From contig CAZOAJ010000004.1 in assembly GCA_964577935.1 (NCBI GenBank), positions 34,572 to 98,571 on the forward strand: a stretch of DNA of 64,000 bases. Direction: 5' to 3'. The notes beneath the pieces were generated by a model. The model ran no database searches. It was not told where the DNA came from and was given only the letters and a program-made list of their open reading frames with translations. Of this stretch, positions 44,260-53,794 are shown one piece after another; within the stretch, counting starts at the first letter, position 1, and each line of letters begins with the position of its first letter. The translations under genes were made by a program, and so were the position numbers. Source of the DNA: an uncultured bacterium. GTDB lineage: Bacteria; Chlamydiota; Chlamydiia; Chlamydiales; FEN-1388.

Positions 44260-45226
44260 TTTCTTAAGACATTTAAAGGCTGTAAAAGATTCTTCTGAGC
44301 ATACGGTAAGAAACTACTCAATTGACTTAAACGCCTTGAAAACATTTCTTGAGTTTTTGTGGTTCCCAGATGCTCCATCAGGGACTTTCAGTCCTAAAAT
44401 TTTCTACAATAAAGAGCCCGATTTAGGAGACATTGAAAGGGATCAAATAGATTTAAAAAGAATCGATCGGAAGTTATTGAGAGAATTTGCATCGAGCATG
44501 GCTGAAAATGGGGCTGAAAGACGGACCATCCTTCGCAGGCTGTCATCCCTGCGTACTTTCTTTAATTACTGTGTTCGCGAAGGATACCTCTCCACAAACC
44601 CGATGGAACAGATCGAAAGTCCGAAATTAGGCAAGTCGCTTCCTAAAGCACTTAACTACGATCAGGTATGTCGACTGTTTGACATGCCACAGACTGAAAA
44701 TTTAATGGGCTTTCGTGACAGAACAATCATGGAACTCTTTTATAGTTCAGGACTTCGTGTTTCAGAACTTGTAGGTCTCAATCGAGCAGATTTTGATGCC
44801 CCACAACTTCTCTTAAAAATTCGAGGAAAAGGAAGAAAAGAAAGAGTTGTTCCTGTAACAAAAAATGCCGCCGACTGGATCTCATCCTACTTAAACCATC
44901 ATGAACGTCATAGAGAAATCGACGGCCATTTTGCCGAAAAAGACCCTGAAGCAATCTTTCTCAATAGATTTGGCACACGCTTGACTTCTAGATCCGTCGA
45001 CCGCCTTTTTGTTCGATACCTTAAAATGAGCGATCTTGCAGCGGATATAACCCCACACACAATTCGCCATACGATAGCTACCCATTGGCTTGAAAATGGC
45101 ATGGATCTCAAAACCATACAACTTTTACTTGGTCATAGCTCTCTGGCAACAACAACGATTTACACCCATGTTTCAAACCGACTGAAACAAAAAGTATTTC
45201 AAAAGAGTCATCCCAGGGCAAACTAA
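44207..45226 (+). CDS. xerC: Tyrosine recombinase XerC/XerD family
   Basis: SEHTVRNYSIDL core-binding domain. Catalytic residues are in GLRVSEL, HTIRHTIATH, LLGHSSLATTTIYTHV. dapF-xerC adjacency mirrors the E. coli arrangement. Confidence 0.9.
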   Translation: MTDVHQIVTSRYSPAAYSFLRHLKAVKDSSEHTVRNYSIDLNALKTFLEFLWFPDAPSGTFSPKIFYNKEPDLGDIERDQIDLKRIDRKLLREFASSMAENGAERRTILRRLSSLRTFFNYCVREGYLSTNPMEQIESPKLGKSLPKALNYDQVCRLFDMPQTENLMGFRDRTIMELFYSSGLRVSELVGLNRADFDAPQLLLKIRGKGRKERVVPVTKNAADWISSYLNHHERHREIDGHFAEKDPEAIFLNRFGTRLTSRSVDRLFVRYLKMSDLAADITPHTIRHTIATHWLENGMDLKTIQLLLGHSSLATTTIYTHVSNRLKQKVFQKSHPRAN

Positions 45227-46575
45227 TTGGCTGAACAATTTCTAACAATGACTTGAGGGCTTTTTCTACCGGAATCTTTCATGAAATCCTCGGGAAATAT
45301 CTTTATGCCAGGATCAAGCTCTTCCGCTCCCTGAACAAGGGTCATACTTGGCAATTTACAGTTATCAAACACATATCTAATCCCTGTTCCCCTCTGCGCA
45401 AACGGCACAAGTGATAAATCAGTAATCCTGCAATTAATGCAATGAACATATCGAACTTTCTCATACCCGACCTCTAATGCATTTTGCTCATCCTGAAATA
45501 GATTTTCTTGAAAGGAAGGAAAGACCTCAATCTCACAATTATCGAAATACACCGCAAATAGATCTGGTGCTGTCTTTGGATCATTTTTGCTTCCGTCTAA
45601 TTGACATCCTTCAATAAAGAACGGGGCAAGAATTTTCGAATTACTAAATCCTACAAGACATCCCTTCGGAATACTTATATGATCTGTATAAATACCTAAA
45701 GACATCTCTGTAAAATAGACTATTTTAGGCTCTTTAACCCCAAAGATGACCGGAGGGATTTTCACTTTGTGAGCATCTACATATTTTGAATCGAAAATCC
45801 AGCAATTAGACCTAGATAGATCTCTTTCAAATCTCTTCTCATTTTCCTTACAAACCACACCAATCATTTGCTCAACATCAGGTGATGAAACAAAAGATAT
45901 AGGAGAAGACGAAGGAGGTTTCAAATGGTTAAATTTTTCGCATAATTCTTTCACCGATTGAGCTTCTAAAAACTGTTGATATTTCGGGTGAGTGCCGCAC
46001 TGATGTTTCGAGTAGCTCCAATAATAATTTTCGGCCTGAGTCCATAGAGTCGTCCATTTTTGATCTACATAAAGGCGAGATCGATCAGCGATGGGCAAAA
46101 AAGAGCCGACTAATCCAAGAACTTCTACAGGAAGCTCCTCAAATTTATTTTTAAAGGAATTTCTATTCCAAAAATCACTTTGTAACGAACTCTCCTTAAA
46201 ATCTGGATGTCGTTTAAATAAAACTTGAAATATCTTGTCGACATTGTTTTTGGTCTCCATATCAACATCGTTTCGGGTAAGAACCCGAACAGCGCGCAAG
46301 ACATATGACTTTTCTTGGTTGTATTGATGATATAGAGATAATTGATGAATAGACGAGGAAATCCCGCATAAATCGACTGAAGAACTAATACGGTCCAAAA
46401 AGCTCCATCCCAACCCTGCAATCCGCTGACCCAAGGCCATCTGTTCTTTATAGAGGTCAAAGAACCCCTCTAAACTGACATAATTACATAAAAACTTTTC
46501 TGCTGTATGTCGATCTAAAATAACCTGACCCATCCCTATACTGCCCTTATTTATCTTACATAAGAATCGTAACAT
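45223..46575 (-). CDS. F-box-like domain protein (eukaryote-like)
   Basis: Residues about 146-180, FEELPVEVLGLVGSFLPIADRSRLYVDQKWTTLW, fit the F-box consensus LPdEiLxxIxsxLxxxDLxxlxxVcKrWxxL. The remainder is unrecognised. Confidence 0.6.
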   Translation of the reverse strand: MLRFLCKINKGSIGMGQVILDRHTAEKFLCNYVSLEGFFDLYKEQMALGQRIAGLGWSFLDRISSSVDLCGISSSIHQLSLYHQYNQEKSYVLRAVRVLTRNDVDMETKNNVDKIFQVLFKRHPDFKESSLQSDFWNRNSFKNKFEELPVEVLGLVGSFLPIADRSRLYVDQKWTTLWTQAENYYWSYSKHQCGTHPKYQQFLEAQSVKELCEKFNHLKPPSSSPISFVSSPDVEQMIGVVCKENEKRFERDLSRSNCWIFDSKYVDAHKVKIPPVIFGVKEPKIVYFTEMSLGIYTDHISIPKGCLVGFSNSKILAPFFIEGCQLDGSKNDPKTAPDLFAVYFDNCEIEVFPSFQENLFQDEQNALEVGYEKVRYVHCINCRITDLSLVPFAQRGTGIRYVFDNCKLPSMTLVQGAEELDPGIKIFPEDFMKDSGRKSPQVIVRNCSAN

Positions 46576-46746
46576 TAAAATTTAGAGGATAACATATTTA
46601 CGACAAAATCCTAACTGTTTCCAAGCCTATGTAAGCGCAATTTATTTTCGTTCAAAAGTCTGAAATGATTGCTGTTTTGATGAACTGGCCATTGACAGTA
46701 AATTTAAAATTTAGACAATGCGCGACTAACTATTTTAAATTTTGAT

Positions 46747-52962: not shown

Positions 52963-53002
52963 ACTACGCAATTAAAAAATTTGAACTATTAGCAAACACA
53001 AT

Positions 53003-53794
53003 TTAATTTCTTTGGATATTATCGAACAAAGAAAAATCAATATTAAGCTGAATGGACCACTTCCATGCACCATTTATTGTTTTCGAATAAAACCATACAG
53101 GACCCGTTTGAATATACACTGCTGGATTAAAGTTATAGGTTAAAGCAACTCCTGCACCTCCAATTGCATTATTTCCACTTGCATAGTCTATTAGAAAATA
53201 CCAACGAGAATATTTTACGCCTTCAGGTGAGGTGACAGCATCAAAACCACGCGAATAACCTGCCATTACTCCTTGACGAACCCTTCCTAAAGCCTGGCTT
53301 CCAAAGTAGGCTCCAACATATAGGTTTCCTCCAAAAGCCTCGGGAAGCGATTTACCGATAACAGCGTTAAGTATGTTTTGATTTGTTCGGTTTTTACCAT
53401 GAGTTTTCGTTCCTACATCAGAGAAACCAATACAAAACGAGGGAGAATGATTAAAAAGAGAAGATTCATCCATCCCAATTTTCGCATTAAAATAGAAAGG
53501 ATTACTCGTCCCAGCCAAATAATCTATACCAGCTTCACCTTTCAGCCCATTCCATGAAAGAATACCTAATTCAAATCCCACATCGGTAGGAATGTTTGAT
53601 GAATACTTCTTTTGATTATAAAGACTAAAATATGAAGTAATACTTACATGCCCTACTCCATATGGCTGAACATCTGTTGTACAGGTAGTCCAAAAAAGTG
53701 ATGTAGGACCTGAATAGAGGTTTTTCACATCAAGAAGCATTGTGAAGAACAGAAAAATCCCGGTTAAAACAAGCCTCATCTCGCTTTCTCTCAT
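53003..53794 (-). CDS. Putative outer-membrane beta-barrel protein
   Basis: Signal peptide, and alternating hydrophobic/aromatic beta-strand pattern throughout (GVALTYNF, AVYIQTGPVWFY, WKWSIQLNIDFSLF). Confidence 0.45.
   Translation of the reverse strand: MRESEMRLVLTGIFLFFTMLLDVKNLYSGPTSLFWTTCTTDVQPYGVGHVSITSYFSLYNQKKYSSNIPTDVGFELGILSWNGLKGEAGIDYLAGTSNPFYFNAKIGMDESSLFNHSPSFCIGFSDVGTKTHGKNRTNQNILNAVIGKSLPEAFGGNLYVGAYFGSQALGRVRQGVMAGYSRGFDAVTSPEGVKYSRWYFLIDYASGNNAIGGAGVALTYNFNPAVYIQTGPVWFYSKTINGAWKWSIQLNIDFSLFDNIQRN

Follow-up and report, generated by a model that had tools for sequence, protein, structure and literature searches.

The window analysed here is a stretch of 64,000 nucleotides (G+C approximately 40%) from an uncultured bacterium, an environmental chlamydia of the order Chlamydiales (lineage FEN-1388; GenBank assembly GCA_964577935.1, contig CAZOAJ010000004.1, positions 34,572 to 98,571), and this report concerns a block of seven genes within it, between xerC and the kdpFABC operon. 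The original prediction, made from the sequence alone, placed this block at 45223-53794 and described it as an old, domesticated effector or surface locus rather than a recent island. Proteins identical to those of the window turn up solely in one NCBI contig of 137,276 bp and in two SRA assemblies with 100% identity to the window; the source organism is present in runs SRR13208889 and SRR13208906. The genes of the block and of its flanks are listed here by window coordinates and strand, with the source of each identification (ORF, open reading frame).

41242-42753, plus strand: glyA (Pfam SHMT)
42792-43400, plus strand: clpP (Pfam CLP_protease)
43351-44259, plus strand: dapF (Pfam DAP_epimerase)
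44207-45226, plus strand: xerC (Pfam Phage_integrase; NCBIfam XerC, 309 bits)
45223-46575, minus strand: orphan ORF, 450 amino acids in the ORF listing, 436 according to gene callers
46747-48180, plus strand: collagen-like protein 1, 477 amino acids (Pfam Collagen, 2.9e-38)
48248-49687, plus strand: collagen-like protein 2, 479 amino acids (Pfam Collagen, 5.6e-35)
49844-50494, plus strand: beta-carbonic anhydrase, 216 amino acids (Pfam Pro_CA, 3.8e-36)
50495-51006: intergenic spacer, 512 bp, the longest of the block
51007-51810, plus strand: ORF with a predicted kinase fold, 267 amino acids (AlphaFold2 and Foldseek)
51850-52962, plus strand: Ser/Thr protein kinase, 370 amino acids (Pfam Pkinase, 2.6e-23)
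53003-53794, minus strand: predicted outer-membrane barrel ORF, 263 amino acids (245-263) (AlphaFold2 and Foldseek)
53976-54581, minus strand: kdpC (Pfam KdpC)
54594-56690, minus strand: kdpB (Pfam E1-E2_ATPase)
56700-58391, minus strand: kdpA (Pfam KdpA)
58402-58491, minus strand: kdpF, 29 amino acids (ORF)

Both flanks are as originally described. The glyA-clpP-dapF-xerC run lies entirely on the plus strand, with dapF and xerC overlapping by 53 bp, and all four kdp genes follow the block on the minus strand, with mgtE, a major facilitator superfamily (MFS) transporter gene and a NUDIX gene beyond kdpF. The 450-residue ORF converges on xerC with a 4-bp overlap, and the spacers from xerC through kdpC measure, in order, -4, 171, 67, 156, 512, 39, 40 and 181 bp. 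Four of these eight fit the intergenic range of 130-510 bp that had been given for the block; the other four lie outside it, and the lengths are not uniform.

Exported proteins are concentrated in the block. Using a home-made rule that combines hydropathy with a cleavage-site heuristic, we found export signals in six of the seven block proteins and in 7 of the 50 other ORFs of the window (Fisher p = 3e-4). The N-terminal signal-like segments are conserved across the three protein families examined. The concentration is therefore genuine, and the surface or exported character that had been proposed for the block holds.

The block also lies where gene order is broken. We compared 80 xerC loci, one per chlamydial species representative, whose XerC proteins are 54-65% identical to that of the window. 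In approximately 29 of these loci, the order is xerC, an ABC-F ATPase gene, often a gene of about 250 amino acids, folE, a CT398 homologue on the opposite strand, a small gene, glyA, clpP, dapF and a conserved gene of about 330 amino acids. In those species xerC is thus upstream of CT398-glyA-clpP-dapF, while in the window (34309-45226) it directly follows dapF. The window has no ABC-F gene, no folE and no counterpart of the 330-residue gene, and its aconitase gene lies beyond the RNase P RNA. Since xerC has come to follow dapF and these three genes are missing, the position of the block coincides exactly with the junction of a rearrangement specific to this lineage.

None of the 80 representatives has the window's arrangement. 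In none of their loci does a block gene or a kdp gene come within 10 kb of xerC, which is consistent with accessory status, and the synteny check that had been suggested (whether xerC is directly followed by kdp in relatives) was accordingly negative in all 80. However, this check is unable to show an insertion, because the relatives share only 54-65% XerC identity with the window and have a different local order. In some of them (L008, L011, L031 and L044), the glyA cluster is inverted relative to xerC.

The composition of the block is native. Its genes have a G+C content at third codon positions (GC3) of 0.27-0.34, against 0.26-0.40 for the window, and their synonymous-codon likelihoods lie inside the window's range. 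Dinucleotide (delta*) and tetranucleotide signatures are at background except in segments dominated by the collagen genes, and the k-mer signature of the 50-55 kb region is likewise at background. The collagen genes' G+C of 0.47-0.51 arises wholly from codon positions 1 and 2 (Gly and Pro), so their k-mer deviation is explained by amino-acid composition.

Marks of mobility were also sought. The only tRNA gene in the 64 kb is tRNA-Val(GAC) at 14558-14632, i.e., at 14.6 kb on the window's scale; a repeat search found no direct repeats flanking the block; and the block contains no mobility gene. The sole integrase-type gene is xerC itself, a conserved housekeeping orthologue (NCBIfam XerC) that is present in all 80 chlamydial species at the identities given above. 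An Rfam scan of the 512-bp spacer returned no family at threshold. Scans for promoters and terminators picked up fewer sites in the real sequence than after shuffling, and apart from one 10/12 site before collagen gene 1 they are given no weight as evidence. The original observation of no tRNA, flanking repeat or integrase other than xerC is therefore upheld, as is the conclusion that this is not a recent island. The term "domesticated" is a different matter: it implies a foreign origin, for which there is evidence neither way.

The first gene of the block has native codon use, and a word-seeded search of 5.8 billion protein clusters with its 450-residue product returned only the protein itself. 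It had been labelled F-box-like. Read by eye, an LPxExL...W motif is present at residues 148-175, a "CINCRITDLSL" stretch occurs in the protein, and the C-terminal third carries degenerate "hxhxNC" repeats (residues 319-324, 342-347, 401-406 and 442-447); these C-terminal motifs resemble Cys-containing leucine-rich repeats (LRRs), without profile support. Against Pfam at E <= 10, the protein gave nothing beyond noise, and no F-box profile matched either the full protein or an 88-residue segment containing the motif, though Pfam's filters discard most matches above approximately E = 0.1, so a very weak F-box match could escape. Two phmmer runs against the PDB found no match and no F-box protein. 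We therefore set aside an F-box identity for this protein, and the label is left without support.

The two collagen-like proteins were correctly recognised. Both contain uninterrupted Gly-X-Y repeats that match the collagen triple-helix profile at the E-values listed above. Protein 1 consists of a signal-like N-terminus, a basic RGKRGKRG stretch, a Gly-X-Y region of approximately 240 residues and, at the C-terminus, a globular domain of approximately 170. Its gene has a G+C of 0.51 with a GC3 of 0.27, contains DNA repeats with a period of 9 or 18 nt and is preceded by a sigma-70-like site (10/12) at 46692-46719. The two proteins are old tandem paralogues, 46% identical overall and 37% identical in the shared C-terminal domain.

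Known families of such proteins are approached only at a distance. The C-terminal domain of protein 2 alone has a sub-threshold match to BclA_C (E = 0.047, 14 bits against a cut-off of 38), and searching the PDB with this domain, both as a single sequence and as a two-sequence profile, gave no match. NCBIfam matches to SclB, Lcl and SclA (162, 124 and 114 bits against equivalog cut-offs of 325, 500 and 400, none of which is reached) are confined to the repeats. We found no literature on chlamydial collagen-like proteins, which is weak evidence given the limited literature collection.

Collagen gene 1 is also a place where short-read assemblies of the same organism break: L001 stops at 47400, whereas L082 and L083 begin at 47517 and 48043, respectively. 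The length of the Gly-X-Y repeat in the window is therefore uncertain.

The carbonic anhydrase likewise stands as predicted. Its Pro_CA match covers profile positions 1-156 of 156, the translation contains the zinc-site motifs of the beta class (CADSR and HENCG), and its N-terminus is hydrophobic and signal-like by our export heuristic. Its match to NCBIfam PRK15219 (1.9e-35) is below that family's cut-off.

The kinase, which would be 367 residues long if begun at the ATG at 51859, had been called WNK-like, and this holds for its active site. Its sequence has GxGxxK followed by VARC where VAxK would be expected, and DLG where DFG would be expected. An exhaustive search gave 34 cluster representatives at E < 1e-30 and 523 at E < 1e-10, and we aligned 60 members of the family. 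The glycine-loop lysine (Lys103 of GxGxxK) is present in all 60. The usual AxK position (121), by contrast, is Cys in 45, Ala in 7, Ser in 4, Leu in 3, Gln in 1 and Lys in none. The Asp residues of HRD and of DFG/DLG are invariant, as are the Glu of alpha-C and the Asn of the catalytic loop, and the catalytic-loop Lys is mostly His (HRDLH for HRDLK). Signal-like hydrophobic N-termini occur in 49 of the 60, and those of the nearest members are textbook signal peptides. Close to the N-terminus, the nearest members, of approximately 355 residues, also share a motif of about the form EW.QCE.F.

The best 60 PDB matches, for the whole kinase and for the N-lobe alone, are CK2, MSK, PLK, ULK, GRK and similar kinases, with no WNK among them. 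Because the nearest solved kinases (CK2, ULK and MSK) are not WNKs, we rejected membership of the WNK family and read the resemblance as a shared active-site solution, which is probably convergent; that is, this bacterial family would probably have evolved the WNK lysine placement independently. Our limited literature collection contained nothing on bacterial WNK-like kinases, which is again weak evidence.

The 267-residue protein encoded just upstream had been proposed as a secreted kinase-fold candidate, and this is right at the level of the fold only. An AlphaFold2 model built from an alignment with 43 homologues has a pLDDT of 88, and the top 50 Foldseek matches in the PDB are all protein kinases, YopO, RioK1, PRPK/Bud32 and HopBF1 among them, with probabilities of 0.8-1.0 and TM scores of only 0.2-0.5. 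The protein is thus predicted to have an atypical protein-kinase-like fold. At the sequence level, it has no match in Pfam or in the PDB (phmmer), and hhalign between its family and a canonical kinase family was negative, so we rejected sequence-level kinase homology.

Its family comprises 105 homologues, none of which has a Pfam domain, and their named sources are Chlamydiia, Rhabdochlamydiaceae and Neochlamydia. K113 (the beta-3 Lys), N223 and D237 (in IDTE) are invariant in the family alignment. There is no glycine-rich loop, and in the sequence alignment the position five residues before the Asn, where an HRD-type Asp would stand, is Ser or variable (consensus G.GS..L..NIPY). This protein could possibly be a minimal kinase fold without a catalytic Asp, acting as a regulator or a pseudokinase. 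Its homologues occur in more than 30 unrelated neighbourhoods. Conserved synteny of this gene with NUDIX and MFS genes was also considered and then dropped, as tblastn detected no NUDIX gene and, in a single genome, only a 28% match to MFS.

Only 39 bp separate the 267-residue ORF from the kinase gene, and the two are also neighbours elsewhere. In a metagenome contig (L112, 1103-3734), two paralogues of the 267-residue family are followed by a degenerate kinase of the same family, with 4-nt overlaps at each junction; with HEDIH for HRD and DWE for DFG, that kinase is probably a pseudokinase. On a JGI contig, a Pkinase gene adjoins two paralogues of the 267-residue family. In addition, one Logan contig is listed for the top homologue of the kinase and one for the runner-up among homologues of the 267-residue protein; each is 7037 bp long, and the equal lengths suggest that both are on one contig. 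Across loci of the 267-residue family longer than 4 kb, however, a kinase neighbour is found in only 1 of approximately 34 (L112). We therefore rejected a general linkage: the pairing is recurrent and restricted to some lineages.

The last gene of the block encodes the putative outer-membrane beta-barrel of the original prediction, and modelling bears this out. The AlphaFold2 model (pLDDT 90) shows an N-terminal signal helix and 12 strands forming a closed antiparallel barrel, and the 50 Foldseek matches listed are all outer-membrane beta-barrel proteins. The sequence has no related family in Pfam or the PDB. Its 117 homologues come from Chlamydiae (Parachlamydiaceae), Nitrospirota, Deltaproteobacteria, Elusimicrobia, Omnitrophica and others.

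The neighbours of this gene point to the kdp operon. In the window it is on the same strand as kdpC and 181 bp downstream of it. In another chlamydial locus (L151, 5567-10804), a 50% identical barrel homologue is immediately upstream of kdpA-kdpB-kdpC on the same strand; the gene order differs from that of the window, and the KdpB proteins are 73% identical. Given this adjacency and the shared strand, the barrel gene is probably best assigned to the kdp module, so the right border of the block would be better placed at approximately 52962 than at 53794.

In two other phyla, a barrel homologue abuts amtB and a P-II gene: L149 (Nitrospirota, 5565-8156) and L150 (deltaproteobacterial, 1366-4164). 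Two chlamydial contexts (L147 and L148) have the barrel without kdp or amt neighbours, and L152 ends at the barrel gene. These neighbours suggest that the barrel is an outer-membrane passage for K+ here and for NH4+ elsewhere, and the 12-strand family may be a dedicated small-cation channel of the outer membrane that is paired with Kdp or Amt across several phyla. A narrow and poorly targeted literature search found no description of porins beside amtB or of a barrel paired with Kdp or Amt.

L147 (7001-9640 and 11618-14061) deserves a separate remark. It contains two barrel paralogues around a radical-SAM gene, with a tandem collagen-like pair nearby. The latter proteins are laid out like the window's pair, with a signal peptide, a basic RGKRGKHGK stretch and short Gly-Ala-Thr repeats, but their C-terminal domain is a different one.

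Taken together, we consider it likely that the segment is a lineage-specific set of envelope and secretome genes, native in composition and lying where synteny breaks, i.e., a mosaic and not a mobile element. The biochemical roles, transcription units and final protein locations that follow are all ones we infer. The mosaic would consist of at least four independent modules rather than one system. The first would be the orphan 450-residue gene. The second would be the tandem collagen-like pair, Sec-exported and, like BclA, Scl and Lcl, making trimeric fibres or adhesins at the surface, possibly co-transcribed with the carbonic anhydrase, which would be periplasmic. The third would be a two-gene unit in which the 267-residue protein and the kinase cooperate somewhere other than the bacterial cytoplasm, be it the periplasm, the inclusion or the host, and the 512-bp spacer, which contains a weak promoter-like site (9/12) at 50915-50942, probably separates two transcription units. 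The fourth would be the barrel, as part of the kdpFABC operon, passing K+ across the outer membrane to feed the pump.

For the third module, a more specific proposal is tentative, and we put it at clearly less than even: the 267-residue protein and the kinase may together make up a Sec-exported kinase module of two proteins, so far undescribed, that works outside the cytoplasm in environmental chlamydiae. Kinase action there is plausible in an ATP-scavenging parasite.

This reading changes several parts of the original description. The block is not a single locus, because its parts have independent distributions and neighbours elsewhere, and the word "effector" claims what is not demonstrated. 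The statement that the block contains only lineage-specific or exported proteins survives in part: the 450-residue gene is an orphan, but for most of the genes "lineage-specific" is wrong (105 and 117 homologues for the 267-residue protein and the barrel, across several phyla, and 523 cluster representatives for the kinase).

Some points weigh against the mosaic. The export signals rest on our home-made hydropathy rule and not on a trained predictor, and the orphan status of the 450-residue gene rests solely on a word-seeded search. The closest relatives compared are at 65% XerC identity, so presence or absence within the family is not covered and the assembly of the block is not datable. The link between barrel and kdp amounts to two kdp and two amt cases among six informative contexts. 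Finally, the five genes for exported proteins that follow one another on one strand could be under common control as a single unit.

The alternative that survives best, which we nonetheless consider unlikely, is a host-directed effector cluster, in which a ubiquitin-ligase mimic of F-box/LRR type and secreted kinases would rewire host signalling. Effectors with F-box and kinase domains are reportedly found in amoeba-associated bacteria, and the motifs seen by eye in the 450-residue protein (the F-box-like LPxExL...W and the Cys-containing, LRR-like repeats) would suit such a role, as would a eukaryote-like kinase whose nearest solved relatives are CK2, ULK and MSK and whose Sec signal argues for action outside the cytoplasm. 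However, the F-box profile is without a match at E <= 10, a Sec signal suggests the periplasm or outer membrane in the first place, and proteins of the envelope type, namely the collagen-like ones, the carbonic anhydrase and the barrel, are encoded in the same block.

Quite unlikely, in our judgement, is one co-regulated surface-coat locus, in which joint expression of the collagen fibres, the carbonic anhydrase, the kinase pair and the barrel (e.g., late in the developmental cycle) would serve to build or modify the outer layer of the infectious particle. Its attraction is the run of five successive plus-strand genes that all have signal-like N-termini, two of whose spacers are short (67 and 39 bp), and in L147 the tandem collagen-like pair is within 5 kb of the two barrel paralogues. 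Against this, the 512-bp gap divides the run, the genes do not travel together elsewhere, and the barrel gene is on the opposite strand, as kdp is. The genes showed no common regulatory motif, and the promoter scan, as noted above, yielded fewer sites than shuffled sequence.

The least likely of the three is an old horizontally acquired island, inserted beside xerC, whose composition has since ameliorated and whose mobility genes were later lost: the block does adjoin a tyrosine recombinase gene at a point of broken synteny, includes an orphan and eukaryote-like domains (collagen repeats and Pkinase) and is near xerC in none of the 80 relatives, but this xerC is a housekeeping orthologue found across those relatives and not an island integrase, att-like repeats and a tRNA are absent, GC3, codon use and k-mers are native, and the component families are widespread in Chlamydiae.

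If the segment is such a native mosaic, then the block as a whole is an ordinary example of a fluid accessory genome, without sign of recent transfer, and it is its parts that are worth attention: the exported kinases of WNK type, the small kinase-fold protein that partners them and the barrel family linked to Kdp or Amt. Bacterial kinases with a signal peptide and a WNK-type lysine shift offer a test case for the evolution and purpose of that active-site geometry. The partner belongs to a Chlamydiae-wide family of small exported proteins with a predicted kinase fold, sometimes translationally coupled to WNK-type kinases. The Kdp and AmtB/GlnK neighbours of the barrel family hint at a route by which K+ or NH4+ may get through the outer membrane to the high-affinity systems that take them up.

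The rest of the window is mostly plain housekeeping, with some other features of interest. At 3397-6702, a gene resembling polysaccharide pyruvyl-transferases is followed by two paralogues with weak GH130 matches and signal-like N-termini; L143 has a 39-40% identical homologue (13348-14406), 3 kb from a gene of the 267-residue family. Three small ORFs follow at 6712-7851 (147, 111 and 110 amino acids), each with two or three predicted membrane segments and without a Pfam match; the 111- and 110-residue ORFs look like paralogues, with AKWFI near the N-terminus of both. Four further ORFs among the housekeeping genes have no Pfam match at 1e-5 (590 amino acids, 12689-14461; 433, 19486-20787; 373, 31026-32147; 321, 39853-40818), so unannotated genes occur singly outside the block too. 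The window also carries genes for cytochrome bd oxidase subunits I and II (24993-27400), a cdaA-ybbR pair encoding a cyclic di-AMP synthase and its regulator (28888-30971) and, on the minus strand at 36667-37048, a class A RNase P RNA (211 bits) that adjoins the CT398 homologue.

Several parts of the block can be set beside known systems. The collagen-like proteins have the layout common to BclA of Bacillus, Scl1 and Scl2 of Streptococcus and Lcl of Legionella, namely an export signal, a long Gly-X-Y region and a globular domain; the LPXTG anchor of Scl1 and Scl2 is not visible in them. The kinase shares with WNK kinases a lysine in the glycine-rich loop and a cysteine at the beta-3 lysine position, but it has only 370 residues, carries a signal peptide, is without the WNK accessory domains and is nearer in sequence to CK2, ULK and MSK. 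The predicted fold of the 267-residue protein matches HopBF1, Bud32/PRPK, Rio kinases and YopO first, with which it has in common the beta-3 Lys and the Asn...Asp pair. It differs from them in its modest structural agreement (TM 0.3-0.5), in lacking profile similarity, a glycine-rich loop and the HRD-type Asp, and in having a Sec signal. The barrel's likeness to the COG4313 channel 4rl8, to intimin/invasin beta-domains and to general porins is structural only, in that all are outer-membrane barrels. Unlike other small outer-membrane barrels, it has no sequence kinship in Pfam or the PDB and is paired with kdpFABC, its homologues being found with amtB/glnK.

At the level of the whole block, classical genomic islands and the plasticity zone of Chlamydiaceae are similar in that, next to a tyrosine recombinase gene, a stretch of genes other than housekeeping ones breaks into the core genes. 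The resemblance to classical islands ends there, as the block has no tRNA, direct repeats or compositional shift, and its recombinase is the housekeeping XerC; the plasticity zone has characteristic flanks and gene content that we take to differ from those of the window. A closer parallel is the accessory genome of environmental chlamydiae, which is highly dynamic (PMC8242063). Its "cloud/shell" patches (Koestlbacher et al. 2021, PMC8242063) are, like this block, patchily distributed genes between core genes, and the block's native composition and lack of mobile-element marks fit that kind as well; what distinguishes the block from them is its richness in Sec-signal proteins and its coincidence with the relocation of xerC relative to a widely conserved cluster.

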